Positions 897 to 63,987 of a stretch of 64,000 nucleotides of DNA are shown piece by piece (positions within the stretch are counted from its first letter, which is position 1; every line of letters begins with the position of its first letter). The DNA lies in NCBI GenBank assembly GCA_003452965.1, contig DMMW01000002.1, forward strand, positions 43,975 to 107,974, given 5' to 3'. Below the pieces are notes generated by a model, which worked only from the letters and a program-made list of their open reading frames with translations, made no database searches and was not told the origin of the DNA. This DNA comes from Elusimicrobiota bacterium. GTDB lineage: Bacteria > Elusimicrobiota > UBA8919. Made by a program: the position numbers and the translations under genes.

Positions 897-912
897 ATCT
901 GTGTAATCAGAT
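897..912 (+). repeat. junction motif ATCTGTGTAATCAGAT (+ orientation), 13 nt before ATG 925
   Basis: direct read of sequence. Confidence 0.8.
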
Positions 913-924
913 TCTGAGGTAATT

Positions 925-1887
925 ATGTTAAACGAAGTGAAATCAGTCTATGACAGAAAAAAGATATCAATAATTACAGGTGTATATAATGAAGAATCGA
1001 CTATACAAGAGGTATATGAAGTAATTAAAAAGGTTTTTTCAGAATTATCGGTAAAATATGATTATGAACATATTTTCATGGATAATTGTAGTAATGATAA
1101 TACACTTCCGATTTTAAGAAATATTGCTTCAAAAGATAAAAGAGTTAAGATAATAACATATTCAAAAAACTTTGGTCCAATTAAAAGTGAATTTATCGGA
1201 TACTTAAATGCAACAGGTGATGCGGTTGTAAGTTTTGAAGGAAATCTCAAAGATCCTGCCGAATTGATACCAACTTTTATAGAAAAATGGGAAGAAGGTT
1301 ATGATGTGGTTTATGGGGTAAGGAATAAAACAAGAGATAATTTTTTGATGTTATTTATGCGTAAATTATTTTATAAGTTATGTTCATCTTTGTCAGAAGA
1401 ACCCTTACCATTAAACGCTGGTTCTTTTCGTATTGTAGATAGAAAGGTGGTAAATGAGCTCATAAAATTAAATGATTATAAACCATATATAAGAGGATTA
1501 ATAACTACTATAGGATTTAAACAAATAGGAATAAATTATGAAAGAAAAGCGCGACCTAGAGGTAGGTCTAAAAGCAATTTAACTTATCTTATAGATTTTG
1601 CCATTAATGCATTTATAAGTTATTCTATCATTCCTATAAGATTATGTACATATATCGGTATTATTCTTTCAGTGGTTAGTTTTTTGGTAGCATTAGTTTA
1701 CGCAATAATTAAGATATTTTTTTGGAATATACAAGCACCGGGTATTGCAACGGTTATAGTATTAGTATTATTCTTTTCGGGTGTACAAATGTTTTTTCTT
1801 GGTATAATTGGAGAATATATAGGTGCTATTCATTCACAGGTGCGAAAGAAACCATTCGTAGTAATAAGCGAAAAAATCAATCTTTGA
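925..1887 (+). CDS. GT2-family polyprenyl-phosphate glycosyltransferase (GtrB/ArnC/DPM1-like) with two C-terminal TM helices
   Basis: N-terminal GT2 fold motifs (ISIITGVYNEE, FMDNCSNDNT, DAVVSFEGNLKDP), C-terminal hydrophobic helices; motif copy 897-912 just upstream. Confidence 0.7.
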   Translation: MLNEVKSVYDRKKISIITGVYNEESTIQEVYEVIKKVFSELSVKYDYEHIFMDNCSNDNTLPILRNIASKDKRVKIITYSKNFGPIKSEFIGYLNATGDAVVSFEGNLKDPAELIPTFIEKWEEGYDVVYGVRNKTRDNFLMLFMRKLFYKLCSSLSEEPLPLNAGSFRIVDRKVVNELIKLNDYKPYIRGLITTIGFKQIGINYERKARPRGRSKSNLTYLIDFAINAFISYSIIPIRLCTYIGIILSVVSFLVALVYAIIKIFFWNIQAPGIATVIVLVLFFSGVQMFFLGIIGEYIGAIHSQVRKKPFVVISEKINL

Positions 1888-1898
1888 TAGAAAATTCT

Positions 1899-3065
1899 AT
1901 GAATAAAGGTAAAAATAAGTTATTACTATTAATTGTAATTAACGTTTTAGTAGTAGTTATTGCAGTTCTATATTTTAATAGAGCATGGTTTTTTGAAGAT
2001 GATATAAGTTTAAATATTTTAGCTTCATTTACTACGGTAAGCCAAGTCGGGAAAGTAGAAGGTATAAGTCAAAACATAATAGGAGTGGATGGAAAAGAAG
2101 GGTTTTTATTACACGGCCGAAATATACCGTTAAAAAAAGGTAGTTATAAGGTAAGTTATAAAGTAAAATTGGTTGATATTGAAAATAATGATGATTCCGA
2201 AAAAAGTATAGGATATTGTAAAGTTAACTTGGCAAATGCACCTAAATATAATAAAAAAATAGAATTAAAAGCAAAGGATTTTTTACAAAAAAATCTTAAA
2301 AAAATAATTATAAATTTTACAGTACCCGAAGGTTACCCCTCAATAGAATTTCAGGTTTTTCAATTTTCTGGCAATAATTTATCAATAGAATCACTAAGAT
2401 TGAATTCAATTATCAGTGAACGTATTCCGTTAAGGACGAAAGAGGTTAAAAAAGCAGTTTTAAATATTATCGGTATGATAGTTTTAATTGCTTTTTTTTT
2501 ATTATTCATAATATTACGGTTCAAGAAGCTGGTATTTTTCATATTATTTATAATAATAGCCGAACTATGGTTTTTGAATATTGAACATTCGTCAGATATA
2601 TTAACTGGTTGTGCGATGTACAGTCCTATAGGGAAATTAGATTCGTTTATGCACATAAAGGCGAACGATACCAAAGAAGGATATCTTGCATATGGTCCGT
2701 ATCTTCCGTTAGAGAAGGGGAGATATAGGGTTAATTACAAAGTATTTTTAGATAATCTGGATAGTGGAGATGATATATCTCGCAAGGTAGGGTATTGTGA
2801 TATAGACATAGAGGGGCATCCTGAACTTAGGAAATTTAGTGAATTTACGGTAGGTAGTTTTAAGAAAAGGAATCCGCAGGAAGTGAGTTTAACATTTAGT
2901 GTGCCTGAAGGCATGCCCAAGACACAATATAGGGTATATCAATATGGTGGCAACAAATTAACGCTTTCGTCATTAAAGTTATACGATGTTGATATAACCA
3001 AGTACATCAGGACTCATTTAGACATATTATTAATTGCGATATTTATAACTATAATTTTTATATAA
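1899..3065 (+). CDS. membrane-anchored protein made of two tandem copies of an uncharacterised ~110-aa domain (TM-domain-TM-domain); ATG at 1899 chosen over overlapping upstream extension
   Basis: Two hydrophobic segments each followed by the repeat YGPY...GYC.IDIEGHP...FTVPEG.PK.QYRVYQ(Y/F)GGNNL; no recognisable catalytic motif. Confidence 0.5.
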   Translation: MNKGKNKLLLLIVINVLVVVIAVLYFNRAWFFEDDISLNILASFTTVSQVGKVEGISQNIIGVDGKEGFLLHGRNIPLKKGSYKVSYKVKLVDIENNDDSEKSIGYCKVNLANAPKYNKKIELKAKDFLQKNLKKIIINFTVPEGYPSIEFQVFQFSGNNLSIESLRLNSIISERIPLRTKEVKKAVLNIIGMIVLIAFFLLFIILRFKKLVFFILFIIIAELWFLNIEHSSDILTGCAMYSPIGKLDSFMHIKANDTKEGYLAYGPYLPLEKGRYRVNYKVFLDNLDSGDDISRKVGYCDIDIEGHPELRKFSEFTVGSFKKRNPQEVSLTFSVPEGMPKTQYRVYQYGGNKLTLSSLKLYDVDITKYIRTHLDILLIAIFITIIFI

Positions 3066-3091
3066 GTGTGATTGTTAAAAAACAACAATTA

Positions 3092-3106
3092 CTGATTACA
3101 CAGATT
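3092..3106 (-). repeat. junction motif, minus orientation (CTGATTACACAGATT), 12 nt before ATG 3119
   Basis: direct read of sequence. Confidence 0.8.
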
Positions 3107-3118
3107 AAATGGATAACA

Positions 3119-5476
3119 ATGAAGAAGATTAAAAGTATAATAATATTATCTGTAGTTATATTTTCAGCTGTTTTATATAGTATAGAGAAACAATGGTATG
3201 ACAAAGAGGGCCATATAAACATACTTAAGACTTGTGCTATGTACAGTCCGATAGGGACGGTTGGAGCAAACGGGCAGATAAAGGCGAACGGGATAGACGT
3301 AGGGTATTTGGCATATGGACCTTACGTACAGTTAAAGGCAGGCAAATATGCTATTAAGTATAAATTGATTTTAAATAATCTGAATATGGATGATGATAGT
3401 GGCAGGGTTGTAGGATATTGTGATGTGGATATAGAAGGTCATCCCGAGCCGGCGTATCATATTGATATGACTGTCGGTGATTTCAAGAAAAAGAATCCTA
3501 GAGAGGTAATGTTAAAGTTTACTGTGCCTGACGGGTTGCCGAAGGTACAGTTCAGGGTATATCAGTATTACGGGAATAATCATATGCTTTTAGGATTGAA
3601 GTTATATCCCAAGAGTTTATCATTATTAACAAGTTTATTAAAGAATAATTTTTTGACATATAATGTGATTTTATTTAGTACGATATTTTTCATATTTTTA
3701 TGCATATATTTTAAAATATGGAAGATATATAAATTGAAACTGTTTTTTAATAAATATAAATCTTTTAAGTTTGATGAATTAGAAGAGCATAATAATTCTG
3801 TTTCAATAAACTTCATTGTACAATTATGTATTATATCATTTTTTACTTTATTATCATTGAATGCTTTTTGGATGAACAGAATGGCTATTCCTGTAATTCC
3901 TTTATGGCAAACTGTATTCATAGCTATTGAAATATCAGTATTTGTGTTAATTATTAGAATATTTAATTTAAGATTGGATATTAAAAAATTTGATATATTT
4001 GATATTTCTTTATTCTTTTTAGTATTTCTGTTTATTTTTTATGTTTTAATAATGCCTTCAATACCCTCATTAATGCCAGTCAATTTCAGCAATGATTGTG
4101 TAACTCATTATTCATGGATGGACCATGTTTATAATAAAAGGACGCTTAATGGTTCGGAAATAGCATTTTATCCGTTCGGATATCATGTGACAACTGTAAT
4201 GTTATCAAAACTTACCGGTATCCCTGCGGTAAAAATGATGAGTATTTTATTGGCATTTGTCATAGCATTATCCACGGCTATTACATATGCTATTATAATA
4301 AGGGTTTTTAATTTTAAGAATGACGGTAAATTAGTTGCATTATTGCCGATATTTACATTTTTTTGGGTTAGAGGATATTATGATTTTGTGTTCAACAGGT
4401 TTTTTCATGGTTCTATGGTATTCAGTTATCTTTTTATGGTGTCGTTTTTTTGGGCTTTGATTGAATATAAAAATTATCCTAAATGGTTCAGTTATCTTTC
4501 GCTAAATTTATCAGCAATAGGGTTGGCTTATTCTTATACATCGTATTTGCCGATGTTGGTTATGCCTTTATTTTTAACGATTTTAATGGAAGATAATAGG
4601 AAATTTACCAGACGGCTTAAAGATTTATTGATTACTATATTGCCAGTTGTTATTTTAAGCATTATTCATTTGAAATCAAAAGGGACTTCCAATCTCGGTT
4701 TGGCTGTATTAAACCATGAAGGATATTGCATAAAATTTAATTTTATGAATTTCGGAGATTTTGGGAATAATGTTAAAGGCGGGTGGTTTTTAATTTTATC
4801 TTTAATTGGTATACCTGTAATAATATCAGGATTTAAGAAGAATATTGCTGTTATAAATTTTACTTTAAGTTTCTTATTGTACTTCTTTCTATTTTATATA
4901 TTAAAACATAATTTTGGAAAGTTTTCATATTATCAGGCGTATAAAATATTATATTTTTCTCCATATATAGCGGTTATTTATATTGCAGCAGTTTTATATT
5001 TTATTAGAAAACAATTGATTAAAATATTTAAACCATTTATTGGTGAAAAATTACATATAATATTATTTATTATATGGTTGTTGATTATTATTAATAAAGC
5101 TTCAATTGTTTATGATATGGAGAATTACAGACCTTGCTATCCAGAAATGTTGAAAGAATCGCATTATTTAACGATTGATTGGGCAAGGAAAAATATAAAA
5201 GAAAATTTTGATTACATATATCATCATCCAAATTTAGGCAACTGGATGCGGCACGGATTTATGAAGGATACTCTTAAAAATATAACACCCGATGAATATT
5301 ATTATCAAGTTTTTGTAATGCCTGTTCAAAAATTATCTGATTGGCTAAATAAGTCCAAAAAAGGAAGAATTGCTGTTGTGGATGATTTAAATACACCGCC
5401 ACTGACTGAGAAACAGAAAAGGCAGTTTGAAATATTATATCAAAAAGAAAATAGCGCAGTGATAAAAAAAATATGA
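3119..5476 (+). CDS. large polytopic membrane protein (about 14 predicted TM helices) with N-terminal copy of the same ~110-aa domain; possible glycosyltransferase/polymerase, function unknown
   Basis: N-terminus LKTCAMYSPIG..GYLAYGPYVQLKAGKYAIKYK..VGYCDVDIEGHP..FTVPDGLPKVQFRVYQYYGNNH repeats domain of previous gene; remainder strongly hydrophobic; start placed at MKKIKS after motif 3092-3106. Confidence 0.45.
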   Translation: MKKIKSIIILSVVIFSAVLYSIEKQWYDKEGHINILKTCAMYSPIGTVGANGQIKANGIDVGYLAYGPYVQLKAGKYAIKYKLILNNLNMDDDSGRVVGYCDVDIEGHPEPAYHIDMTVGDFKKKNPREVMLKFTVPDGLPKVQFRVYQYYGNNHMLLGLKLYPKSLSLLTSLLKNNFLTYNVILFSTIFFIFLCIYFKIWKIYKLKLFFNKYKSFKFDELEEHNNSVSINFIVQLCIISFFTLLSLNAFWMNRMAIPVIPLWQTVFIAIEISVFVLIIRIFNLRLDIKKFDIFDISLFFLVFLFIFYVLIMPSIPSLMPVNFSNDCVTHYSWMDHVYNKRTLNGSEIAFYPFGYHVTTVMLSKLTGIPAVKMMSILLAFVIALSTAITYAIIIRVFNFKNDGKLVALLPIFTFFWVRGYYDFVFNRFFHGSMVFSYLFMVSFFWALIEYKNYPKWFSYLSLNLSAIGLAYSYTSYLPMLVMPLFLTILMEDNRKFTRRLKDLLITILPVVILSIIHLKSKGTSNLGLAVLNHEGYCIKFNFMNFGDFGNNVKGGWFLILSLIGIPVIISGFKKNIAVINFTLSFLLYFFLFYILKHNFGKFSYYQAYKILYFSPYIAVIYIAAVLYFIRKQLIKIFKPFIGEKLHIILFIIWLLIIINKASIVYDMENYRPCYPEMLKESHYLTIDWARKNIKENFDYIYHHPNLGNWMRHGFMKDTLKNITPDEYYYQVFVMPVQKLSDWLNKSKKGRIAVVDDLNTPPLTEKQKRQFEILYQKENSAVIKKI

Positions 5477-6786
5477 AACATATGTCAATTTACCAGTTGC
5501 TTGGGAAAATTCCCAATCATATATGGGTTGCGGTAAGCAATTGGTGTAGCAGAATAATTATTGCAATGGTTCAGCTGGTAAGCATACGAATGCTTTTGGC
5601 TGGGTTTGGAAGCGAAAAATTCGCAGTTTTCGTGCTTTTGACGAGTTTAATAGGATGGTATTCTTTATCAGATATGGGAGTGGGCTTAAGTTTACAGAAT
5701 TATATATCGGAAAAAAGGTCACTGAATGAACCATATACGGATTATTTAAGTTCTGCTTTTGTAATTACTTTAGTTCTCTGGTGTTTAGGTATTTTCTTCC
5801 TTTTTTTAATAAGTCCGGTAATAGCTCCAATTTTTCTAAAACAATTTACTTTTATTAGCGACGCTGAGAAGATAAAATATTTTTTTATAATAGGATTCAT
5901 ATATTTTAGCGTAACTTTAAGTAGTACTACTTATAAAATATGGTATGCCGAGCAAAAGGGATATTTGGCTAACATAGTTCCCGCAATTGCATCTTTAATT
6001 GGTTTATTTGGTGTGTGGTATGTTTTAAAATTAGATGTAGAAAACAAATTGTTGATAGCATTAATTGCATTCACTTCACCGGCGATGATTTTAGGGGTAT
6101 TTTTTTTCTTTTTAAAAACCATTGTATTTTCAAAGTTAAGACTGCATAAAGATATATTTGTATTTAAGAATTTGGTGAATCGTGCTGGAAGATTTTTCTT
6201 TTTTGCGTTGATAGGATTATTTATTACACAGATTGATTATTTTGTTTTGTCACAGACAGTAAAAGCATATGATATAGTTATATATAATATTTCAAATAAA
6301 CTTTTTAGTTTTGCATTTTCAATATATGTTGCAGTTCTTACTGCATGGCATCCTGTAAATGCGGAGATGTATGTCAGAAATGAATTTTTCAATATTAGAA
6401 GATATGCAAAAACATATATAATTGCAGGGATATTAGGAATAATATTGTTTACCTTTGGATTTATGATATTTAAACAGAAAATAATAATGATTTTATCGCC
6501 CCAAGAAAACATAATCATACCTGTTGTATTTATATTATTGCTCGGTATTTATTTTGCAATAAGGATTTGGAATGATACTTTTGTTACATTGCTTGTTAGT
6601 ATGAATAAATTTCGTCATATATTTATTATTGCTCCGATTCAAATTGTAATTTCGGCTTTATTACAAATAACATTGGCATATAAATTCGGGATAAACGGTT
6701 TGATTGTTGGCTTGATAATTGCTTATCTTTCAACAAGCGCTTGGTTTTTACCGAAAGTATTCAAAAAACATGTTTTAATGGATTGA
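5473..6786 (+). CDS. wzx: MOP-superfamily polysaccharide flippase (Wzx-like)
   Basis: 437 aa, about 12 hydrophobic helices, Polysacc_synt-like N-terminus; ATGA overlap with upstream stop. Confidence 0.6.
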   Translation: MKHMSIYQLLGKIPNHIWVAVSNWCSRIIIAMVQLVSIRMLLAGFGSEKFAVFVLLTSLIGWYSLSDMGVGLSLQNYISEKRSLNEPYTDYLSSAFVITLVLWCLGIFFLFLISPVIAPIFLKQFTFISDAEKIKYFFIIGFIYFSVTLSSTTYKIWYAEQKGYLANIVPAIASLIGLFGVWYVLKLDVENKLLIALIAFTSPAMILGVFFFFLKTIVFSKLRLHKDIFVFKNLVNRAGRFFFFALIGLFITQIDYFVLSQTVKAYDIVIYNISNKLFSFAFSIYVAVLTAWHPVNAEMYVRNEFFNIRRYAKTYIIAGILGIILFTFGFMIFKQKIIMILSPQENIIIPVVFILLLGIYFAIRIWNDTFVTLLVSMNKFRHIFIIAPIQIVISALLQITLAYKFGINGLIVGLIIAYLSTSAWFLPKVFKKHVLMD

Positions 6787-7832: not shown

Positions 7833-8561
7833 GTGGAATTTAAATCGAAAAATAGAATTTATGAGAATTATAATGCACATGCATTAGTATATGAGGATAT
7901 AACAGTCAAAGGACTGAAACGTTGGATAGGTTATTATCGCGCGCATTATTTAAAATTGTTACCAAAAAATAAAAATTCTAAAATATTGGACGTGGGTTGT
8001 GGTTACGGACGGATGCTATATTTTCTTAATAACGAAGGATACAGAAATATATATGGCATAGATACAAGCCAGCAGCAAGTAGAGACCGCTATTCAAAATG
8101 GGCTTAACTATGTTGAACATGCATCTGCATTTAAATTCCTTGAAAATAAAAAGGAACAGTATGATACCATAATAATGATAGATGTTTTGGAACATATTGA
8201 AAAAACTGAGGTATTGGAACTTCTCGATAAAGTATATTTTTCGCTAAAAGCCGGCGGTTCAATAATATTACAACTGCCAAATGCCTTGACACCGTTTAAC
8301 GTTTTTTTATACCAGGATTTTACGCATGAAACGGCATATACACGTGCAAGTATCAGTCAGTTATTAAGTACTACAGGGTTTGAAAATATTAGAGTGTTTC
8401 CGATAGTTCCACATATTCATGGTCCAAAGAGTTTAATTTCACATCTGATGTGGAAGGTTGTTTGGCAAAATTTAATCAAATTATATATGTTGACTGCAAA
8501 TGGTAATTTAATGGGAAATATTTATACCAGCAATTTAATCGCATATGCTGAAAAAATGTGA
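7833..8561 (+). CDS. class I SAM-dependent methyltransferase (GTG start as listed)
   Basis: ILDVGCGYGRML motif I; IMIDVLEHI; LKAGGSIIL. Confidence 0.7.
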   Translation: MEFKSKNRIYENYNAHALVYEDITVKGLKRWIGYYRAHYLKLLPKNKNSKILDVGCGYGRMLYFLNNEGYRNIYGIDTSQQQVETAIQNGLNYVEHASAFKFLENKKEQYDTIIMIDVLEHIEKTEVLELLDKVYFSLKAGGSIILQLPNALTPFNVFLYQDFTHETAYTRASISQLLSTTGFENIRVFPIVPHIHGPKSLISHLMWKVVWQNLIKLYMLTANGNLMGNIYTSNLIAYAEKM

Positions 8562-8590
8562 TTGTTGAAACAATCACTAAGAGGAGTAAT

Positions 8591-9541
8591 ATGAAAGTAT
8601 TAATTACCGGGATTTCAGGATTCGCTGGAAATTTTATGTATGATTTTTTAACCAATATAAAAGATATTGATATTTATGGGATGTATTGGGATTTTAATAG
8701 GAAGAATAATATTCAGAAAAAATTTGATAAAGCAAAACTATGGGAAATTGATATGATAAATGATACACAATTATTGGACAATATACTAAAAGAAGTCCAA
8801 CCCGATATAATAATGCATTTTGCTGCATATGTAACTGTAATAGGTTCCTTTAAGAATCCAGGTCCGATATTTCAAACTAATTTAATTGGTACAGTAAATT
8901 TGCTTGAATCTGTAAGGAAAATAATACCGGAATCCAAAGTTTTGATAACCGGTTCGGCAGAGGAATATGGTAAGGTTCCCAATGATAAACTGCCGATAAA
9001 GGAAGAGTATTCGTTAAATCCGGTAAGTCCGTATGCGCTTAGTAAAAAATTTCAGGAAGATATAGGATTATATTATTTCAATAATTACGGAGTAAAGGTG
9101 TATTTTACTAGAACATTTCATACAGCAGGGCCAAAACAACCGATTGGTTATGTCTGCACCGACATAGCCAAGCAGATTGCTGAAATTGAAAAAGGGAACG
9201 CAAAAAGTATCCAAGTCGGTAATTTAATCGCGAAAAGAGATTTTTCCGATATTAGAGATGTTATAAATGCCTATTGGCGAATTATAAATTACGGAAAAGC
9301 GGGAGAGATTTATAATGTGTGCAGCGGGACATCCGTATCTATACAGGAAATATTGGATAGATTGATAAAATATTCAAACAAAACCATTAAAGTTGAAGTG
9401 GATAAAGACAAATTAAGACCGTCCGATGTTCCGGATTTTGTTGGCGATAATACAAATTTAAAAAAAATAGGATGGAGTCAGAAATATACTTTAGAAGATA
9501 CGTTAAGTGCAGTTTTAAATTGGTGGCGAAAAAGCATCTGA
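8591..9541 (+). CDS. NAD-dependent epimerase/dehydratase of the GDP-4-keto-6-deoxy-D-mannose reductase (Rmd)/GMD subfamily
   Basis: MKVLITGISGFAGN Rossmann start after RBS aagaggag; SPYALSK (YxxxK), FHTAGPKQP, VGNLIAKRDFSDIRDVINAY resembling Rmd VGNLEARRDFSDVRD. Confidence 0.6.
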   Translation: MKVLITGISGFAGNFMYDFLTNIKDIDIYGMYWDFNRKNNIQKKFDKAKLWEIDMINDTQLLDNILKEVQPDIIMHFAAYVTVIGSFKNPGPIFQTNLIGTVNLLESVRKIIPESKVLITGSAEEYGKVPNDKLPIKEEYSLNPVSPYALSKKFQEDIGLYYFNNYGVKVYFTRTFHTAGPKQPIGYVCTDIAKQIAEIEKGNAKSIQVGNLIAKRDFSDIRDVINAYWRIINYGKAGEIYNVCSGTSVSIQEILDRLIKYSNKTIKVEVDKDKLRPSDVPDFVGDNTNLKKIGWSQKYTLEDTLSAVLNWWRKSI

Positions 9542-9552
9542 TTACACAGATT
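9536..9552 (-). repeat. junction motif, minus orientation (ATCTGATTACACAGATT), overlaps stop of upstream gene, 4 nt before ATG 9557
   Basis: direct read of sequence. Confidence 0.8.
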
Positions 9553-11763: not shown

Positions 11764-11793
11764 TATTATTATTTTAAGTTGAATATCAAAATT

Positions 11794-14730
11794 ATGAAAA
11801 ATAAAAATATATTATTAATTATATTATCGCTTGTTTTGATAATAATTATTTCAACAATAATAGAATATAATCATTACAGGAAAACAACCACGGTAGACAT
11901 ATTGGGCATGAATATACCGATGTTTAGTGTAATAGGTAAGGTATCAGACAGCCGGATAATCACAGATGGAGAAAAGGAAGGGTATTTGGCATATGGTCCA
12001 TATATACCGTTAGACAAAGGAGAATATGAAGTAAAGTACAAAATAAAATTGAACAAGTCGAATCCGAATATAAGCAGCACAACATTAGTAGGATATTGTG
12101 ATATAGACATAGAAGGACATCCCCAACTTGGGTATCGTGCAGACTTAATAGTCAATAACTTTAAGAATATAAAAGAGAATGAAGTATCGCTTAGGTTTAC
12201 AGTACCTGGAGGTAAACCGAAAATACAATATAGAGTATATCAATATGGTGGCAATAATTTATCGTTAATAGGATTAAAATATTATCCAATAGGTTTAAGA
12301 GATTTTATAATAGATAAAGAAGGAAAATTGAATTTTAAAACAATTCATATATTTATAATAATATTTTTAGTATACATGTATATTAGGCTTATATTGAAAA
12401 CAAAGAAAAATAATCTAATCAAATATTTTATAATAAATACTATTACTATAGTCATTTCCGGATTGATAGTTGCCTTAATTTGGCAATATAAGAATTATTC
12501 GATACATAATTATACAGATTATTATGATATGTGGAAAGTATTTTATGCCCCATTATGGATGTCTCTTTTATTTATATTTTTTAATTTACTTTATTTAATT
12601 AACAATAGTTTTGGGTTTAATGTGCAAATCGAAAAATATCTTAGATATGATAGATATTCTTTAGTAATAATTCCGATATACATATTAGCAGAATTGTTTT
12701 ACAAAAATTTCAACACTCAATTTGTACTCGGTAATTTTTATCTAAGCACTTTGATAATCAAAGGGCTTATATATTTTTCTTTCCTTTGGCAAAATATAAA
12801 AGATAAAAATCAGATAGACAAATATCTGAAATGGAGTATAATTTTAAGTATTTTTACAATATATTTTTTAATTACTCCTTGGGTAAATGCCAGTTTTCAT
12901 AGCGATGGTGATGAGTCACTTTACTTATTACAGACGCAAAGTATAATAAAAGATTTAGATATAGATATAAAAAACAATGTGATACAAAATGATAGTATTT
13001 CTTATCATCCAAATTTACAATGGACTAAATGGCACGGGTCATACAGCAGACCTCTAACGTCATATATATTAATGCCGGGATTTTTACTATTAGGGCGGTT
13101 TGGTGCAACAATGACAATTAATCTGTTCGGTGCATTACTGGCAATTAATATATTATTATTGGCGTATTTATTTTCAAAATCAATAAAAGCAAGTTTTATT
13201 GCAATGATGGTAACTGTTTTTAGTTGTCCTGTCGGTATTTATTCATTTCTTGTATATCCAGAAATAATAGCGTCTTTAATTATGATATACTTAATAAGAA
13301 AAATATTATTAATTAATTTCGAATTGAATAATATAATAGTGCCAGTAATATTAATAATATCAATTATGTTATTAAAAGAAAGATATATTGTTTTGGTGTT
13401 GGCATTAAGTATTTTATTAATAATAAAAGTGGTAAAAAATACGAGAAGATTATTGTTAGTTACTTGTATGTTGATAATCGTATCAATTATATTTTTAATT
13501 TACGATAAAATTATTTGGGAAGGGGATATAGTCAAGAAAATAATGTTTCATTTTAGAAATTATAGTGATTATAGACAATTACTTATTGGCAGTTTAGGAT
13601 TATTGTTAGATCAAGAGAGCGGTTTATTGATTTATGCTCCATTTTATATCTTTAGTACTTTAGGAATGCTTAGTTTATTAAAATATAATAAAAAATATGG
13701 CTGGATGTTATTGTTATTATTTTCATTATACTATTTGACAATTCCTACAAGTGAATTCTGGGCAACATATGGTTCTCCAGCCTCAAGATATATAGTAGTT
13801 GTTATCCCGATATTATCAATAGCATTCAGTATTTATATTATTCATTTAAAAAAAATATTGTTAAAAATATTGACGATTTTTTTACTCGGATGGTCTTTTA
13901 TAATTTATTTTATACTTATCCTTATTCCACAATATAGGGTTCATAGCCCCAATTATGCAACCGGTAAAAATGAGTTACTGGATAGGTTGTATGCTACCGG
14001 ATTGTTCCCAAACTTGACACCATATTTTTCTTCATTCTTAAAAATATCGGATACAACTTATTATTTAATAGTTTTATTTGTGGTTGTATTTGTAGTGCTA
14101 CTAATTTATTATATTAAGCAGGAAAATATTACTGCGGAAACATATGACAAGAAAAAGGTATTAAAAATCACTGCGGTTATAGTTTGTATTATTGGTTTTT
14201 TGCTAGTATTCGCAGAAATCAGTTATTATAAATATCAGGTATTTGAAGTCGAAGATTATTATACCGGTGGTGGGACGATATGGCAAGAAGGTTTGATATA
14301 CAAAGGCAAAGGTTTTTTCTCACTTCTAAAAACATCATTAAGGAAAAATGAAGAAGTGAATGTAAAGATAATAGCAAAAGGTGATATATCTAAGAACTTA
14401 CCTGAAATTAGTGCTGAAACTGTTAATAATAAAGATAGAGAAAAAGTTGGAAAAACTATGATTGACAGCAGAGATTGGAAAGAATATGATATTTTATATA
14501 AATCAACGAAAGGTGATTTAAGTCCTTTTTGGTTTATTTACGATAATTATACTGAAGGTAAAGATGTTCTTATAGATAAAATTATATTTTCATCAATAGA
14601 AAAAAAGTCTTGGTTAGGATTTATAAATTATCAATTAGGCAAAATAGATAGACGTTTGGGTTTAATAGATTATGCACATATTAGATTTGAAAAAGCTGCA
14701 AAATTAGGATATAAAATTGAAAAAAAATAA
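11794..14730 (+). CDS. large polytopic membrane protein with N-terminal ~110-aa repeat domain and C-terminal soluble domain; tentatively GT-C-fold glycosyltransferase (ArnT/PMT-like)
   Basis: N-terminal EGYLAYGPYIPLDKGEYEVKYK..VGYCDIDIEGHP..FTVPGGKPKIQYRVYQYGGNNLSL; about 16 hydrophobic helices; loop motif DGDESLYLL reminiscent of DE..Y motif of GT-C enzymes. Confidence 0.4.
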   Translation: MKNKNILLIILSLVLIIIISTIIEYNHYRKTTTVDILGMNIPMFSVIGKVSDSRIITDGEKEGYLAYGPYIPLDKGEYEVKYKIKLNKSNPNISSTTLVGYCDIDIEGHPQLGYRADLIVNNFKNIKENEVSLRFTVPGGKPKIQYRVYQYGGNNLSLIGLKYYPIGLRDFIIDKEGKLNFKTIHIFIIIFLVYMYIRLILKTKKNNLIKYFIINTITIVISGLIVALIWQYKNYSIHNYTDYYDMWKVFYAPLWMSLLFIFFNLLYLINNSFGFNVQIEKYLRYDRYSLVIIPIYILAELFYKNFNTQFVLGNFYLSTLIIKGLIYFSFLWQNIKDKNQIDKYLKWSIILSIFTIYFLITPWVNASFHSDGDESLYLLQTQSIIKDLDIDIKNNVIQNDSISYHPNLQWTKWHGSYSRPLTSYILMPGFLLLGRFGATMTINLFGALLAINILLLAYLFSKSIKASFIAMMVTVFSCPVGIYSFLVYPEIIASLIMIYLIRKILLINFELNNIIVPVILIISIMLLKERYIVLVLALSILLIIKVVKNTRRLLLVTCMLIIVSIIFLIYDKIIWEGDIVKKIMFHFRNYSDYRQLLIGSLGLLLDQESGLLIYAPFYIFSTLGMLSLLKYNKKYGWMLLLLFSLYYLTIPTSEFWATYGSPASRYIVVVIPILSIAFSIYIIHLKKILLKILTIFLLGWSFIIYFILILIPQYRVHSPNYATGKNELLDRLYATGLFPNLTPYFSSFLKISDTTYYLIVLFVVVFVVLLIYYIKQENITAETYDKKKVLKITAVIVCIIGFLLVFAEISYYKYQVFEVEDYYTGGGTIWQEGLIYKGKGFFSLLKTSLRKNEEVNVKIIAKGDISKNLPEISAETVNNKDREKVGKTMIDSRDWKEYDILYKSTKGDLSPFWFIYDNYTEGKDVLIDKIIFSSIEKKSWLGFINYQLGKIDRRLGLIDYAHIRFEKAAKLGYKIEKK

Positions 14731-14766: not shown

Positions 14767-17546
<2,780 letters not shown>

Positions 17547-17550
<4 letters not shown>

Positions 17551-19742: not shown

Positions 19743-20269
19743 AAAATGGATTAATTGTGTGGTTAACGGGTTTATCCGGTTCCGGAAAAAGTACTATTGC
19801 AAATATAGCAGTCAAAAAACTAAAAAAAGCAAATATAAAGTCGGAAATAATAGATGGTGATGCCGTAAGAAGTCTAACTACAAAACACTTGAAGTTTTCC
19901 AAATCTGATATATCAGAGAATAATAGAATAATTTCGGATGTTTGTGAAGAAAAAAGAAAATATTTGGATGTGGTTATTGTAACGGTTATAGCACCGTTTA
20001 AAGAAATAAGAAAAGAAATCAGGGATAGATTCGGTAAGTTATACAAAGAAGTGTATGTAAAAGCTTCATTAGATACTGTAATTAAAAGAGATCCGAAAAA
20101 CTTATATGAAAAAGCTAGGCAGGGTCTGATAAAAAATATGATAGGTTTTTCTAAAAGTGTTCCATATGAAGCACCTGATAATCCGGATCTTATATTAGAT
20201 ACCGAGAGAAAAGAAGCGGATGAATTAGCATTAGATTTAAAAAAATTTGTAACGGACAGTATTGATTAG
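19739..20269 (+). CDS. cysC: adenylyl-sulfate (APS) kinase
   Basis: P-loop GLSGSGKST, IDGDAVR, LKFSKSDISENNRIIS, RDPKNLYEKA. Confidence 0.85.
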   Translation: MKNGLIVWLTGLSGSGKSTIANIAVKKLKKANIKSEIIDGDAVRSLTTKHLKFSKSDISENNRIISDVCEEKRKYLDVVIVTVIAPFKEIRKEIRDRFGKLYKEVYVKASLDTVIKRDPKNLYEKARQGLIKNMIGFSKSVPYEAPDNPDLILDTERKEADELALDLKKFVTDSID

Positions 20270-42002: not shown

Positions 42003-42059
42003 TTGTAAAATCAATTAATTCAGTAATAGCTTGCAGAGCATTTTAATGGAGAATATAAA

Positions 42060-49040: not shown

Positions 49041-49115
49041 TACCGTTAAAAAAGTCATTAACGGTATCGATTACATCCATCCTCCGTAGCAGTAGTCTGC
49101 TACTGCGGAGGATGG
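49041..49115 (+). terminator. two consecutive stem-loops (TACCGTTAA..TTAACGGTA; CCATCCTCCG-TA-GCAGTAG-TCTG-CTACTGC-GGAGGATGG) after membrane-protein gene
   Basis: second is a 17-bp GC-rich stem followed by GCAGATTTT. Confidence 0.5.
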
Positions 49116-49131
49116 GCAGATTTTAAAAATA

Positions 49132-49144
49132 GATTACACAGATT
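49132..49144 (-). repeat. junction motif, minus orientation (GATTACACAGATT), 21 nt before ATG 49166
   Basis: direct read of sequence. Confidence 0.75.
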
Positions 49145-59089: not shown

Positions 59090-59101
59090 AATAAAATTCA
59101 A

Positions 59102-60418
59102 ATGACACTATTCGGTACTATCAGAAAAAAAATATTATCAAAAAATATTGAAAAAAGAAATCTTGAATATCTTCAAGTTATGGAAGATAAACAAAGATTA
59201 TTTTTTCAGTTGGGAAAATTTAATAAATGCTGGCAGAAAATAATTAAAAATATTCAATATTATTCAGATTTAGTTAATGATAAGAAACTTCCAAAAAGAT
59301 TTGAGACATGGAAAGAGTTTTTAGAAAAAGTGCCGGTTATTACTAAAAAAACTATACAAGAGAGTAAAAATATAATGTTTGATAAGTCAAGGAATATTGA
59401 TTTTGTACGTACTACAGGAGGAACAACCTCACAGCCGATTCAATTACCTGCATGGAATTCGGAGATGAGAATAACAGAGCTGGATATGTGGTTCGCAAGA
59501 AGTTGGTATGGAATATATCCAAATAGCAAATTATTTCTGATATGGGGTCACAGCCATTTGTTGGGGGCAGGAATAAAAGGAAAAATTAACAAATTTAAAA
59601 GAAAATTTAAAGATTATCTTTTGGGATATTACAGGTTTTCAGCATATAATATGAATGAAGAAAATATGCGTAGAGCAGCTTTGGAAATGTTGGATTTTCA
59701 TCCGGATTATATTATTGGTTACAGCGTGGTTTTAGATTCTTTTGTAAGAGCAAATAGAGATTTAATAACGGAACTAAGAAAAATAGGGGTTAAGGTAGTA
59801 ATAGGCGCTGCCGAATCATTTCCTTCAGATAATACCGAAGAAATACTTGGTAAAATGTTTAATTGTCCGGTTGGTATGGAATATGGTTCGGTTGAAACAA
59901 ATTTAATTGCCCATACTCATCCTGATGGCGGATACAAGGTTTTTTGGCAAAACTATTTTGTAGAAGCAATTGATAACGGATTACAAAATGGCAAAATAAT
60001 AAGGGTGACTAGTCTTTATCCGAGATGTTTTCCTTTGATTCGTTATGAGATTGGCGACGCTGCGCAATTATTTGAAGGGGATAACGGGATTGGATTAACC
60101 CGTTTTCAGAAGGTTATCGGCAGATGTAATTTATCTGTTAATTTGAAAGATGGAAGTATAATTCATTCCGAAGTTTTTACACATGCTTTACGTGATTGCG
60201 AAGGTATTATTCGTTATCAGGTGATACAGAATAAAGATTCAATAAGATTGTTAATAATTAAAAATGAAAAATTTAATAATAATATGGAAATAAGAATTAA
60301 AGAAAAATTTTCTAAAATTCATCCTGATTTAAATAAAGTAAAAATTGAAGTAGTGCAGAATTTGGAACAAACTTTAGCAGGTAAAACACCGATGATAATA
60401 AGACATACTGTGGATTGA
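59102..60418 (+). CDS. adenylate-forming enzyme of the CapK / phenylacetate-CoA-ligase / F390-synthetase-like family
   Basis: RTTGGTTSQP (AMP-binding TSGTTG-type), length and topology of PaaK-like enzymes. Confidence 0.55.
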   Translation: MTLFGTIRKKILSKNIEKRNLEYLQVMEDKQRLFFQLGKFNKCWQKIIKNIQYYSDLVNDKKLPKRFETWKEFLEKVPVITKKTIQESKNIMFDKSRNIDFVRTTGGTTSQPIQLPAWNSEMRITELDMWFARSWYGIYPNSKLFLIWGHSHLLGAGIKGKINKFKRKFKDYLLGYYRFSAYNMNEENMRRAALEMLDFHPDYIIGYSVVLDSFVRANRDLITELRKIGVKVVIGAAESFPSDNTEEILGKMFNCPVGMEYGSVETNLIAHTHPDGGYKVFWQNYFVEAIDNGLQNGKIIRVTSLYPRCFPLIRYEIGDAAQLFEGDNGIGLTRFQKVIGRCNLSVNLKDGSIIHSEVFTHALRDCEGIIRYQVIQNKDSIRLLIIKNEKFNNNMEIRIKEKFSKIHPDLNKVKIEVVQNLEQTLAGKTPMIIRHTVD

Positions 60419-60473
60419 TTTTATTTAATTACGTTAATTTAAAAGCAGATTATCCGTATTCTATTGTTTAGTT

Positions 60474-60485
60474 AATCTGTGTAAT
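60474..60485 (+). repeat. junction motif AATCTGTGTAAT (+), left copy of a direct pair
   Basis: direct read of sequence. Confidence 0.8.
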
Positions 60486-60496
60486 TTGTACACGGA

Positions 60497-60543
60497 GCTC
60501 GTAGCCACTGCAACGAGCGAGTATGCAACCCCGTTTTACGGGG
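60497..60543 (+). other. two GC-rich hairpins (GCTCGT..ACGAGC; CCCCGT-TTT-ACGGGG) between direct motif copies
   Basis: read directly. Confidence 0.5.
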
Positions 60544-60555
60544 CAAACATCATCT

Positions 60556-60570
60556 AATCTGTGTAATCAG
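60556..60570 (+). repeat. junction motif AATCTGTGTAATCAG (+), right copy, 18 nt before ATG 60589
   Basis: direct read of sequence. Confidence 0.8.
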
Positions 60571-60588
60571 GTTTTACAAGGAAGGATA

Positions 60589-61710
60589 ATGAAGATAGTA
60601 ATTAATGCTTATTCTGCGCGAAGGGGTGGTGGGCAAACATATTTAACAAACCTGCTTAAAAATATAGATTCAAATCCCAGATTGGAAGTTTATATTTTCG
60701 CTGACGAATCACAGTATATACCCAACCATCCAAATATTAAAAAGATAAAAACAAACTGGTCGACTTGCAATCCTTTTTTTAGAACAATATGGGAAAAGTT
60801 TATATTGCCTATATTTTTAAAAAAGATAAAAGCGGATGTTCTTTTTTGTCCTGGCGGACTAGTGAATACAAGAGTTCCGGTTGGATGTAAAATTGTTACA
60901 ATGTTCCGTAATATGATTCCGTTTGATATTGAGCAAAGGAAAAAATACCCGTTTGGATATATGAGGTTTCGTAATTGGTTATTGGAGAAACTTTTTTTGA
61001 AAAGCATGCTAAAAGCGGATTTGGTTATTTTTATATCGGAATATGCTAAAAAAGTTATTGAAAATAGAATACCCATTAAATTAAAAAAAACAGTATTAAT
61101 ACCTCATGGTATAAACGAAGAATTTAAGGTTTCTGATAGGACCAATATGATAAGACCTAATCAATTACCAAAAGAAGATTATATTCTTTACGTTTCTTTG
61201 TTTGACGTATATAAAAATCAGATTGAAGTTGTGCAAGCATATAATTTATTGAAAGAAAGGCGTAAAACTTTCGAAAAACTGGTTTTTGTCGGTTTTAATG
61301 ATACGCAATATGGTGAAAGAGTTAAAAAAGAAATATTGAGATTAGGCTTGAAAAATGATATAATCCTGCTTGGCAATATTGATTATAAAGATTTGCCAAG
61401 TATATATAAGTTTGCTAAAATCAATATATTTGCATCTGAATGTGAAAATTGCCCAAATATACTGCTTGAAGCAATGGGAGCAGGAAGGCCTTTAGTTGTC
61501 TCAAATAAGCCACCGATGCCTGAATTTGGCGGTGATTCTGCGATTTATTTTAATCCTAGGTCACCGGAAGATTTATGCAATAAAATTTTTACTATTATTG
61601 ATAAGCCCGGGGAATTGAATGGGTTATCTAAAAAAGTCTTTGAGCGTTCCTTGTTATATGATTGGAAAGAAACTTCAAGAAAAACATGGGAAGCGTTAAA
61701 AAGTTTGTAA
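60589..61710 (+). CDS. GT4-family glycosyltransferase
   Basis: MKIVINAY after RBS aggaagg; CPNILLEAMGAGRPLVVSN E-x7-E region. Confidence 0.75.
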   Translation: MKIVINAYSARRGGGQTYLTNLLKNIDSNPRLEVYIFADESQYIPNHPNIKKIKTNWSTCNPFFRTIWEKFILPIFLKKIKADVLFCPGGLVNTRVPVGCKIVTMFRNMIPFDIEQRKKYPFGYMRFRNWLLEKLFLKSMLKADLVIFISEYAKKVIENRIPIKLKKTVLIPHGINEEFKVSDRTNMIRPNQLPKEDYILYVSLFDVYKNQIEVVQAYNLLKERRKTFEKLVFVGFNDTQYGERVKKEILRLGLKNDIILLGNIDYKDLPSIYKFAKINIFASECENCPNILLEAMGAGRPLVVSNKPPMPEFGGDSAIYFNPRSPEDLCNKIFTIIDKPGELNGLSKKVFERSLLYDWKETSRKTWEALKSL

Positions 61711-61713
61711 AAA

Positions 61714-62958
61714 ATGAATATTTTAATTGTTTCACATTATTTTTGGCCGGAAAATTTACGTATAAATGATTTAGCTTTGGGGTTGGTTGATAAAGGTCAT
61801 TTTGTGACGGTTCTAACGGGAATACCTAATTATCCCGAAGGTAAGTTCTATGAAGGTTACAGTTTTTTTAAAAAACTAAAAGAGAATTATAAAAATATTA
61901 AGATAATAAGGGTGCCGGTAATACCGCGAGGCAAGGCAAGAAAAATAGATATGATATTAAACTATCTGTCATATCCGCTTATGGGAAGTTTATTAGGTCC
62001 TTTTTTATGTAAAGATAAATATGATGTAATTTTTGTTCCGCAGTATTCGCCTTTTACCGTAGGAATTCCTGCGGTAGTTTTAAAATGGTTTAAGAAAAGT
62101 CCTATTTTGTTTTGGGTCCAGGATTTATGGCCCGAAAGTGTTGTTACTGCAAAGGATTCAATAAAATCACCTTTTATACTAAAGCTTATTGAAAAAATGG
62201 TAAGATTTGTATATAAAAATTGTGATAAGGTTTTAATTCAATCAAAAGCGTTTATAGATAATTTGGAAAAAATGGGAGTCAATCAAGAAAAAATTTATTA
62301 TTTTCCTAACTGGGCGGGCGAGTTTTCTCAACAGGATTCAGTATCTGAAAAAAAAGAAAAAGTACCGGATTTGCCAAAAGGTTTCCGCTTGATGTATGCA
62401 GGTAATATCGGTACGATTCAGGATTTTGAAACTATATTAACTTCTATGGAAAAATTGAAAAATTATACTGATATACATTTAATTGTAATAGGAGAAGGGC
62501 GAAATAGCGGGTGGGTAAGAGAACAAGTTAAACTAAGAAATTTAGATAAGAACGTTCATTTATTAGGCAGGAAACCGATAAATGAAATGCCTTATTACTA
62601 TTCACAGGCGGATGCGATGTTGGTAACACTCAAGACCGAACCGATATTTGCATTAACTATTCCAAATAGAGTCCAGTCGTATCTTGCGAGCGGCAGGCCT
62701 ATTATTGCAGGTTTAGATGGTGAAGGTGCAAGGGTTATTAATGAAGCCGGAGGGGGTTTGACCTGCCCGAGTTCAAGACCTGAAGAACTAAAGGATATAA
62801 TTTTAAAACTTTATAAAAAAACACCGACAGAACGGACTGAAATGGGATCCAAGGGTTTGGATTATTACAGAAAAAATTTTGATTATAATATGTTAATGGA
62901 TAAATTAGTAAATTTAATGGCTAATATCAGTGAGTGTCCCATTAGGAAAGCCTATTAG
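61714..62958 (+). CDS. GT4-family glycosyltransferase (WcaI-like)
   Basis: MNILIVSHYFWPENLRINDLALGL, GNIG, C-terminal GT-B region. Confidence 0.7.
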   Translation: MNILIVSHYFWPENLRINDLALGLVDKGHFVTVLTGIPNYPEGKFYEGYSFFKKLKENYKNIKIIRVPVIPRGKARKIDMILNYLSYPLMGSLLGPFLCKDKYDVIFVPQYSPFTVGIPAVVLKWFKKSPILFWVQDLWPESVVTAKDSIKSPFILKLIEKMVRFVYKNCDKVLIQSKAFIDNLEKMGVNQEKIYYFPNWAGEFSQQDSVSEKKEKVPDLPKGFRLMYAGNIGTIQDFETILTSMEKLKNYTDIHLIVIGEGRNSGWVREQVKLRNLDKNVHLLGRKPINEMPYYYSQADAMLVTLKTEPIFALTIPNRVQSYLASGRPIIAGLDGEGARVINEAGGGLTCPSSRPEELKDIILKLYKKTPTERTEMGSKGLDYYRKNFDYNMLMDKLVNLMANISECPIRKAY

Positions 62959-62971
62959 GGTGTCATTATGA

Positions 62972-62987
62972 TCCCGATTTATCGGGA
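62972..62987 (+). promoter_or_regulatory. 16-bp perfect palindrome TCCCGATTTATCGGGA after GT4 gene / before RmlD-like gene
   Basis: 7-bp arms, 2-nt centre. Confidence 0.4.
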
Positions 62988-63050
62988 GAAGAATCTTAAA
63001 ACCGAGATACTTCGCTATCGCTCAGTATGACAAAGAAAGTATATAAGAAA

Positions 63051-63917
63051 ATGAAGATAATAATTTTGGGTGGGACTGGATTGCTCGGGCATACACTTTG
63101 GGAATATCTTTCCTTGAAAAATTCCGATACTTATACTACTGTAAGATTATCGCGATCCAATTATGAAAATTATAAGAGTAATAAAGTTATAGATAATGTT
63201 GATATAACTGATATTGAAAATGTTGAAAAGATACTTAATAAAATTAAACCGGATATTATTCTGAACTGTATAGGTGTAACTAAAAGAAGGGAAAATATAG
63301 ATAATTATCAATATCTAAGTATTCTTTTGAATGCCTTATTCCCGATAAGATTATCGCAGTGGGCTAAAAAAAATAATTCAAAAGTTATCAATTTCAGTAC
63401 CGATTGTGTATTTGACGGTAAAATCGGAAATTATTCGGAAGATAGTCCTACAAATGCAACAGATGTTTATGGAAAAACGAAATCACTCGGAGAAATTAGG
63501 GATGATAATGCTCTTACATTACGTTCTTCGTTTATTGGCTTTGAACTTTATCATAAGACAGAATTATTGGAATGGTTTCTATCGCAAAAAGTAACAGTGA
63601 AAGGTTTTAAAAATGCGATATATTCAGGATTAACCACTTTGGAATTAAGCAGGGTAGTTGAGAATATATTATTATCATATCCTAAAATGACCGGACTTTA
63701 CAATATCTCAAGCGAGTCGATAAATAAATATGATTTATTGATGTTGATTAGAAAAAAGTTTAAACTTGTTACGAAAATAATACCGGATGAAACTTTCTCT
63801 TGTGACAGAAGTTTAAATTCTTCAAAATTTAGAAAAGAACTTAATTATAATCCGCCTTCATGGGAATCTATGATTGCCGAATTATCTGAAAAATATTTAC
63901 AAAAAAAGGATGTTTGA
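63051..63917 (+). CDS. dTDP-4-dehydrorhamnose reductase-like SDR (RmlD family)
   Basis: MKIIILGGTGLLG, ILNCIGVTK, INFSTDCVFDG, YGKTKSLGE. Confidence 0.6.
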   Translation: MKIIILGGTGLLGHTLWEYLSLKNSDTYTTVRLSRSNYENYKSNKVIDNVDITDIENVEKILNKIKPDIILNCIGVTKRRENIDNYQYLSILLNALFPIRLSQWAKKNNSKVINFSTDCVFDGKIGNYSEDSPTNATDVYGKTKSLGEIRDDNALTLRSSFIGFELYHKTELLEWFLSQKVTVKGFKNAIYSGLTTLELSRVVENILLSYPKMTGLYNISSESINKYDLLMLIRKKFKLVTKIIPDETFSCDRSLNSSKFRKELNYNPPSWESMIAELSEKYLQKKDV

Positions 63918-63928
63918 TTGCACAGATT
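63917..63928 (-). repeat. junction motif variant, minus orientation (ATTGCACAGATT), starts at last base of upstream stop codon
   Basis: one mismatch to ATTACACAGATT. Confidence 0.6.
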
Positions 63929-63975
63929 ATTATAATCAGGTTACTAAGGTTCTTAAGAAAAAAGATTTTGGTTCT

Positions 63976-63987
63976 AATCTGTGTAAT
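63976..63987 (+). repeat. junction motif AATCTGTGTAAT (+), inverted partner of 63917 copy
   Basis: direct read of sequence. Confidence 0.75.

Follow-up and report, generated by a model that had tools for sequence, protein, structure and literature searches.

Why does one short sequence recur at so many gene junctions of a single polysaccharide locus? The locus lies in a 64,000-nt stretch, the window, of an Elusimicrobiota bacterium (lineage UBA8919; GCA_003452965.1, contig DMMW01000002.1, positions 43,975 to 107,974), and the sequence is the 12-mer AATCTGTGTAAT. A first-pass annotation made from the window alone had offered three roles for it: the binding site of a cluster-specific regulator or antiterminator, a recognition site for recombinase-mediated cassette exchange or inversion, and the terminal repeats of decayed miniature elements. 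The last of these is the one supported here. The motif is quite probably the terminal or sub-terminal repeat of small cassettes that are bounded by inverted repeats and occur across phyla, and the window copies would be their gene-less leftovers. A full cassette measures ~0.42–0.52 kb: its left end has one to four copies, a short leader and a single gene for a ~120-aa protein of the GxxExxY family follow, and one or two right copies come right after the stop codon. Most cassettes lie in the same direction as their neighbours, in the gap that separates a host gene's stop codon from the ribosome-binding site of the gene that follows. The cassette family is apparently undescribed and seems to be widespread, occurring in many bacterial phyla and in some archaea.

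A repeat array shared across phyla

On both strands of the window, AATCTGTGTAAT is present in seven exact and three one-mismatch copies against 0.69 expected, and none of 100 shuffles yielded ten or more copies, which bears out the claim that the motif is far more frequent than chance allows. The copies listed earlier were all recovered at their positions, the one at 41993–42002 being degenerate (41991–42012), and an additional copy begins at 63998 and continues past the window end, as seen in the flanking locus L127. The conserved unit is the 13-mer AATCTGTGNAATC, slightly longer than the 12-mer, with one free position and with A and G often next. At up to one mismatch it marks nine sites, eight of which are intergenic or at a gene edge, in a window whose intergenic share is 3.7% (~2.4 kb of 64 kb); about 6 of the 18 gaps of at least 50 nt contain an exact copy and two or three more contain degenerate ones. 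The statement that the motif appears only in intergenic gaps holds for these eight sites and fails for an overlooked exact 12-mer in coding DNA at 6223–6234, within open reading frame (ORF) 5473–6786; a second overlooked coding copy, with one mismatch, lies at 12509–12520 in ORF 11779–14730. Four copies were indeed found 4–21 nt before start codons, at 12, 12, 4 and 18 nt from the starts at 925, 3119, 9557 and 60589, and the judgement that this is too close for a promoter is a fair one. The closeness is accounted for by the sites that the cassettes occupy in tightly packed operons, downstream of one gene's stop codon and ahead of the next ribosome-binding site. No long repeats surround the motif within the window, where only paralogous coding repeats were detected.

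Is the motif restricted to glycan loci? A pattern search of one genome per species (596 Gb) was performed with AATCTGTGNAATN{0,30}AATCTGTGNAAT, which describes two copies 0–30 nt apart with 22 specified bases, and for which ~2 matches would be expected by chance if equal base frequencies are assumed. Among the matches listed, this tandem pattern was found in at least 118 stretches from more than 15 phyla, including Bacteroidota, Omnitrophota, Elusimicrobia, Desulfobacterota, Planctomycetota, Clostridia, Cyanobacteria, Verrucomicrobia, Gemmatimonadota, Chloroflexota and candidate phyla, as well as the archaeon Methanocella. They comprise cultured isolates and one complete genome, with GC contents of 34 to 68%. 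Of the arrays listed, ~88% are intergenic. The genes just downstream encode ATP synthase, tRNA synthetases, carbamoyl-phosphate synthase, ftsA and obg, other neighbours are ribosomal protein genes, and in one Clostridia genome arrays separate gatC, gatA and gatB. A restriction to glycan loci was not observed, as the neighbours are housekeeping genes and the same holds for other loci of this species. The window copies are identical to copies at these 118 or more loci and to those in the flanks of GxxExxY genes.

The arrays share one architecture, in which one or more copies of GATTNCACAGATT are followed by a short centre and one or more copies of AATCTGTGNAATC. Adjacent (-)/(+) pairs (n = 63) are mostly 15–100 nt apart, and short-range (+)/(-) pairs are almost absent. 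The spacing between same-strand copies peaks at 21–22 nt, with a second class at 9 nt that is formed by tandem runs of the nonamer unit AATCYGYGN; the ends in the present species are CTGATTNCACAGATT on the left and AATCTGTGNAATCAG on the right. The centre of compact four-site arrays is 13–22 nt, and complete arrays fold as long hairpins (z = -3.3 to -6.7). Across phyla, 11 of the 12 positions are identical and position 9 alone varies freely.

Several searches for a known identity of the repeats were negative. No Rfam family reached the gathering score in the window, its flanks or ten array loci, the only matches being weak and at chance level (E ≤10). No description of the repeats was found in the literature searched, in which the motif and end strings match unrelated primers and small interfering RNAs alone; prior informal knowledge of them is possible, and ISfinder and the NCBIfam curators' notes lay outside the search. 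On viral contigs, chance matches dominate among those listed for the 14-mer ATCTGTGTAATCAG, and the sole double match (L041) is a GC-rich coding repeat. As a separate observation, a 345-nt element is present in at least four copies in one Saprospiraceae genome; it has 30-nt terminal inverted repeats of its own (TATACTTCGCGTCGTCAAGTTTCGAGCATG) and a nonamer array at its centre, a nested repeat (L172 263–760 and 5819–6315; L205 314–810; L239 6444–6940).

GxxExxY genes between inverted repeats

What do the arrays enclose? In three of the five loci with a centre of ~410–445 nt, the centre is an ORF of 122–132 aa matching TIGR04256, GxxExxY (E 1e-36 to 1e-43), whose Pfam counterpart is PF13366, PDDEXK_3, with the PD-(D/E)XK nuclease fold. 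Among the matches listed, a GxxExxY gene or a C-terminal fragment of it lies directly at the array in 11 of 118 array loci, and the fragments in L161, L206 and L208 indicate that arrays outlive the gene. One centre of 931 nt (L247) contains a 215-aa HEAT-repeat-like ORF instead of GxxExxY.

The association was also examined in the reverse direction, using 80 GxxExxY loci from metagenomes that were fetched by protein similarity alone and of which 71 had enough flank. ATCYGYGNAAT was present in the (-) orientation within 200 nt upstream of the gene in 27 of the 71 loci and in the (+) orientation within 200 nt downstream in 32, with only 5 and 5 loci showing the wrong orientation; the background was 18 copies in 210 kb further away, and the chance of one such match in a flank was estimated at ~0.002. 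Unbiased 8-mer counts pointed to the same sequences, with AATCTGCG/AATCTGTG downstream of GxxExxY and their complements upstream. Thirty-one loci are bounded by TCCRCAGATTA...TAATCTGYGGA, the unit being mostly 414–520 nt, and in a cultured Treponema an annotated GxxExxY gene lies between CACGGAT and ATCCGTG. Whichever of the two is taken as the starting point, motif and GxxExxY gene are thus associated, and in a fixed orientation.

The catalytic D, E and K of the D...ExK signature are invariant in both protein alignments, and the nuclease is probably active, judging from these residues. The family is large, with 17,713 clusters at 50% identity (E ≤0.001), and many representatives have 250–300 aa (mostly 260–280) with two matched stretches, that is, they are tandem fusions of two nuclease domains, which fits a protein that normally works as a dimer. 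A 2012 survey gave the function of PDDEXK_3 as 'unknown' and noted multiple transfers between divisions (PMC3424549); this was the sole functional statement found in the literature on GxxExxY, PF13366 and the intervening-sequence protein, which contained nothing on repeats.

Orthologous sites were sought by an all-against-all comparison of the locus flanks, and two of them were informative. At the leuC/leuD junction, L314 has an empty site, in which the stop codon, ribosome-binding site and start codon lie within ~20 nt and neither repeat nor gene is present. The full unit is present in L310, whose flanks are ~93–97% identical to those of L314 as judged by eye in the alignment, and full repeats plus gene are also found in L192, L302 and L328. 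The unit, which directly follows the stop codon of leuC and stops short of the ribosome-binding site of leuD, is flanked on both sides by TTAA (L310) or TTGA (L192, L302). Because the empty site has no array, the repeats and the gene arrived together. The second site, the rpsK/rpsD junction, is filled in L219 and L341–L350 and has arrays without the gene in L220, so the gene can be lost while the repeats stay. The repeats and the gene are, in short, jointly present or absent at an orthologous site, and the repeats persist without the gene or with a fragment of it. About half of the full cassettes directly adjoin the stop codon of an upstream gene that is read in the same direction.

Both junctions have further features. 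In L305 (1583–1776), the leuC/leuD junction contains an unrelated insert of ~190 nt made of short AT-rich repeats, and the junction seems to be a recurrent landing place. One GxxExxY subfamily (70–100% identical) occupies rpsK/rpsD in all ten independent metagenome contexts returned (L341–L350), where the cassettes lie in the rpsM-rpsK-rpsD-rpoA-rplQ operon with one (-) and one (+) flanking copy of the motif.

Motif copies in the window and in this species

How do the copies in the window (Table 1) relate to these cassettes? Since the window contains no GxxExxY gene, its copies would be gene-less derivatives and solo ends: three appear to be gene-less miniature derivatives (63914–~64012, 60446–60570 and 49113–49144), one a decayed array (41991–42012), and three solo ends (896, 3092 and 9538). 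The abutment of cassettes on stop codons has its match here, as the TGA in CTGATT/TTGATT is the stop codon of two upstream ORFs: TGA 9539–9541, inside the copy at 9538–9552, ends ORF 8558–9541, and TGA 63915–63917, within the left copy of the last element, ends ORF 63027–63917. With its flank (L127), this element reads ATTGCACAGATT, 47 nt, AATCTGTGTAAT, 10 nt, AATCTGTGTAATCAG, and it folds as a long hairpin (DNA z = -3.7). In the half-array at 49113–49144, the distance from CAGATT to CAGATT is 21 nt, and its AAAAATA spacer before the inner left copy is common to three arrays of this species (also L135 and L228), which points to a common source within the genome. For the copy at 3092–3106, metagenome gene callers chose GTG 3068 as the start, which puts it in coding DNA, and ATG 3119 gives MKKIKSIIILS, a typical N-terminus. 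Whether the coding copy at 6222–6234 belongs to the family is uncertain; it could be a chance occurrence or an absorbed copy.

Table 1. Copies of the motif and elements built from it in the 64-kb window (positions are those of the window)
Feature	Positions	Strand	Composition and context
Solo right end	896–912	+	TATCTGTGTAATCAGAT; 12 nt 5' of ATG 925 (GT2 glycosyltransferase); no partner within 60 nt
Solo left end	3092–3106	-	CTGATTACACAGATT; 12 nt 5' of ATG 3119
Copy of uncertain membership	6222–6234	-	TATTACACAGATT; within flippase-like ORF 5473–6786; sole good coding copy
Solo left end	9538–9552	-	CTGATTACACAGATT; occupies the entire 15-nt junction; ATG 9557 4 nt on
Degenerate nonamer run, apparently a decayed right-hand array	41991–42012	+	GTTCTGTGT AATTTGTAA AATC; 5' of UDP-GlcNAc 2-epimerase gene
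Left half-array	49113–49144	-	degenerate outer GGGCAGATT, spacer TTAAAAATA, exact GATTACACAGATT (49133–49144)
Rearranged gene-less element	60446–60570	+	degenerate (-) CAGATTATCCGTAT at ~60446–60460, (+) copy at 60474–60485, 70-nt structured insert at 60486–60555, (+) AATCTGTGTAATCAG at 60556–60570; ATG 60589 18 nt on
Complete gene-less miniature element	63914 to ~64012 (cut by window end)		left copy TTGATTGCACAGATT (-), 47-nt centre, right AATCTGTGTAAT (+) at 63976 and, 22 nt on, AATCTGTGTAATCAG (+) from 63998
One-mismatch copy	63917–63928	-	part of the element 63914–~64012

The organism is an Elusimicrobia metagenome-assembled genome from the Rifle aquifer; proteins of the window have identical counterparts in GenBank under Elusimicrobia bacterium, among them RIFOXYD2_FULL_34_15, and the locus recurs nearly identical in groundwater metagenomes. 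About 10 kb upstream of the window, L135 has copies at 1625(-), 1646(-) and 1692(+) with a 21-nt spacing, which form a gene-less element of ~90–100 nt (1620–1706) with CTGATTNCACAGATT and AATCTGTGNAATCAG ends between genes for acetaldehyde dehydrogenase and aldolase. The same species also has tandem copies at a site flanked by ispH and a plsC-like acyltransferase gene, within the row cmk-plsC-ispH-rpsA, and at one that follows a gene for an ABC-transporter permease, indicating that even here the motif is not tied to glycan genes. The canonical 21–22-nt arrays of the species are those of L127, L135, L149 and L228, and no extra copies were detected in 16 kb of other DNA from it.

Do strains of the species differ at the motif? 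About 40 metagenome contigs of the locus are colinear at every motif site, and no rearrangement breakpoints were found at the motif: L130, L355 and L356 differ within genes, with their arrays unchanged. An apparent 100-nt indel in L315 was rejected as an element and is a tandem duplication. Compared with window positions 60228–64000, the strain variant L130 (1–4899) has a glycosyltransferase gene that is only 86% identical and is followed by an extra methyltransferase gene; on either side the identity is 98–100%, the upstream part containing both motif copies, and the divergence begins ~20–30 nt inside the glycosyltransferase gene. The rearranged element at 60446–60570 is kept in this divergent strain.

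The long ORFs of the window are all on the + strand and all have polysaccharide functions, comprising glycosyltransferases, sugar epimerases and dehydratases, NeuB, flippases and a sulfation module. This module (16717–20269) consists of a sulfotransferase, a pyruvate-kinase-like/ATP sulfurylase fusion and APS kinase, and its presence in a glycan locus suggests a sulfated polysaccharide. ORFs 1899–3065, 3119–5476 and 11779–14730 are paralogous, with repeated segments of 68–75% DNA identity and no Pfam match, and metagenome contigs of this locus tend to end at them. A GC-richer structured unit of 70–80 nt occurs in three copies, one in the window (60486–60555), exactly between two motif copies, and two in L127 (10996–11072 and 11089–11168, corresponding to ~64022–64194), in tandem in the leader of a FnlA/CapE-like gene. 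Its layout is GCUAA, a hairpin whose sequence varies while the stem is kept, and CAGCRACCC-loop-GGGYAAA, with RNA fold z of -4.0 to -5.8. It has no Rfam match and is confined to this organism among the sampled loci, and its membership in the cross-phylum family was rejected on the latter ground. About 2.3 kb past the window end (L127 12301–12576), a gene for a 91-aa GIY-YIG nuclease, another small nuclease in the glycan locus, lies between FnlA-like and UDP-GlcNAc 2-epimerase-like genes without an adjoining motif copy.

Mechanism, alternatives and significance

How could such repeats function? They may be where a protein, most likely the cassette's own nuclease, recognises the cassette and moves it, in analogy to transposon ends with several binding sites or to a homing-endonuclease target that is split by its gene. 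Sequence-specific protein binding is suggested because the end sites are iterated at a two-helical-turn or 9-nt spacing, have one free position, and are identical across phyla. The only protein always present is the nuclease, which makes it the candidate binder. Movement could occur by transposition, with a possible TTRA duplication, or by homing into arrays. The copies in the window would now be passive leftovers, and their visible effects would be incidental: at two copies the TGA stop codon of the gene upstream comes from the motif, and a complete array is able to fold into a hairpin. A bolder version, which we put forward only tentatively, is that GxxExxY cassettes are minimal autonomous mobile elements of ~0.45 kb, in which a dimer of the 120-aa PD-(D/E)XK protein recognises the end nonamers and directs either insertion immediately behind stop codons, perhaps at TTRA, or homing into gene-less arrays. 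In that case the window copies, far from being dead relics, could serve as landing or mobilisation sites, and the identity of the 12-mer from Elusimicrobia to Methanocella would be explained.

A number of results weigh against the cassette origin of the motif or against a mobilising role of the nuclease. On the one hand, tblastn and a six-frame hidden Markov model search of the window, L127, L135, L149 and L228 (~94 kb of the species) revealed no GxxExxY gene or relic, and the derivation of the window copies from a gene-bearing cassette is for this reason a matter of family resemblance. About 90% of the sampled arrays are without the gene, so the repeats might spread on their own, and a few of the listed matches are unrelated repeats, e.g., a coding repeat in L143. 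On the other hand, this motif class was found at just 44% of the sampled GxxExxY genes, and less similar subfamilies have other flanking inverted repeats, e.g., GAACACGAAT; the same difference between subfamilies also implies that protein and repeat travel and diverge together. A consistent target-site duplication was not found, as matching direct repeats of 3–4 nt are present at 5 of ~25 cassettes. At 120 aa, the GxxExxY protein is very small to be a complete transposase, and its structure model (pLDDT 68) gave just weak restriction-endonuclease-like matches. GxxExxY genes are rare on plasmids (8 records, none mobilisable) and viral contigs (3 loci), and comparison with PADLOC and PHROGs gave no defence-system or phage family match.

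Could the repeats be independent miniature inverted-repeat elements that are moved in trans by an unrelated transposase, with GxxExxY as a passenger or as an inserter into palindromic arrays? The large share of gene-less arrays would be expected in that case. The 13–22-nt centres of compact arrays are shorter than the flanks that simple gene loss would leave, copies of the same genome are alike outside the motif as well (L251, L182), and the Saprospiraceae array is carried inside an element with terminal repeats of its own. However, GxxExxY is nearly the sole cargo between the arms, with L247 as the exception, it keeps one orientation with respect to them (27:5 and 32:5), and its subfamilies differ in flank motif. 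The empty leuC/leuD site without any array argues that array and gene came together, and no transposase was found beside arrays in ~0.9 Mb of sampled loci, a survey of the commonest families only. We regard a transposase acting in trans as rather unlikely.

An explanation at the RNA level appears unlikely as well. The arms would pair as a stem by which the cassette is cut from the operon message, as in RNase III processing of intervening sequences, the gene-less arrays would be hairpins with a role in stabilising or separating messages, and the conservation of sequence would reflect common descent only. This would suit co-directional cassettes within operons, including rpsM-rpsK-rpsD-rpoA, where downstream expression must continue, and complete arrays are indeed long hairpins with the z values given above. 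Yet a stem needs complementarity alone, while 11 of 12 positions are the same across phyla; solo copies are unable to pair, and the regular same-strand spacing of 21–22 or 9 nt resembles an array of protein binding sites. Processing of this kind is compatible with mobile cassettes and leaves their spread unexplained.

It is very improbable that the motif serves the glycan cluster, be it as an operator for a regulator or antiterminator or as a site of site-specific recombination: copies do lie at the junctions of cluster genes in both orientations with a spacing typical of protein binding sites, but the same 12–13-mer arrangement is found in more than 15 phyla near housekeeping genes and elsewhere in this species, which excludes the cluster-specific site as proposed, and the window encodes no regulator, recombinase, integrase or transposase, strain variants do not break at the motif (the L130 boundary lies inside a glycosyltransferase gene), and both exact matches to the RfaH ops sequence GGCGGTAG are in coding DNA. 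Known signals of these kinds were rejected by name. The RfaH ops/JUMPStart element has GGCGGTAG in an untranslated leader and in one orientation, whereas the present motif has no sequence relation to it and is found in either orientation, the GGCGGTAG matches at 23951 and 33038 being inside coding regions. Invertible-promoter and other site-specific recombination sites were rejected since neither the window nor its flanks have a recombinase and the ~40 contigs are colinear. DNA uptake sequences (Neisseria DUS, Haemophilus USS) are confined to one bacterial family and dense throughout the genome, including genes; the present motif extends over more than 15 phyla, and eight of its nine window copies are intergenic.

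Among known mobile elements, the window copies resemble miniature inverted-repeat transposable elements (MITEs) and solo terminal repeats, such as Correia of Neisseria and ERIC. These are likewise ~60–110 nt, non-coding, bounded by inverted repeats, intergenic and often within operons, and they also form hairpins, reach many copies per genome and share their ends with a larger gene-bearing relative. The elements at 63914–~64012 and L135 1620–1706 have the terminal inverted repeats, small size and absence of coding capacity of MITEs, and GxxExxY cassettes are a gene-bearing relative with the same ends, the role of their protein as a transposase being putative. In contrast to MITEs, the relative here encodes a 120-aa PD-(D/E)XK protein rather than a DDE or HUH transposase, and the ends are iterated nonamers common to many phyla rather than to one genus. 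Free-standing homing endonuclease genes (phage T4 seg, mob) resemble the cassettes in that a lone small nuclease gene lies between host genes, co-directional and non-disruptive, is present or absent at one site in relatives, and decays and is lost over time. They differ in belonging to the GIY-YIG, HNH and LAGLIDADG families, in having neither terminal inverted repeats nor leftover arrays, and in spreading between alleles of one locus, while the cassettes are found at many unrelated loci. The ends of Mu, Tn7 and IS21 also have several direct-repeated sites that are inverted between ends and ~two helical turns apart, but these elements are kilobases long and use DDE transposases with helper proteins. 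Repetitive extragenic palindromic (REP) sequences, their REPIN pairs and the associated RAYT gene are similar in combining numerous short intergenic palindromic inverted pairs with one small gene flanked by the same repeats; RAYT, however, is an IS200-related HUH tyrosine transposase, and REP is species-specific with a GTAG head, neither of which applies here. An identity with REP/REPIN-RAYT was rejected, as the associated gene is a PF13366/TIGR04256 PD-(D/E)XK gene and the repeat is common across phyla.

What does a cassette origin of the motif mean for the organism and for the family? For the window, a glycan-specific control or shuffling signal is removed as a reading, and the effect of the copies is the ordinary one of leftover DNA. 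Annotators could use the repeat to recognise insertions and to correct the starts and ends of adjoining genes. For the GxxExxY family, a large protein family of unknown function is linked to a conserved DNA signature and to a presence/absence polymorphism, and the repeat association makes its function directly testable, both in the binding or cutting of the repeat and in the movement of the cassette. If the cassette moves, it would be among the smallest self-mobilising elements known, colonising essential operons, including those of ribosomal proteins, without harm.

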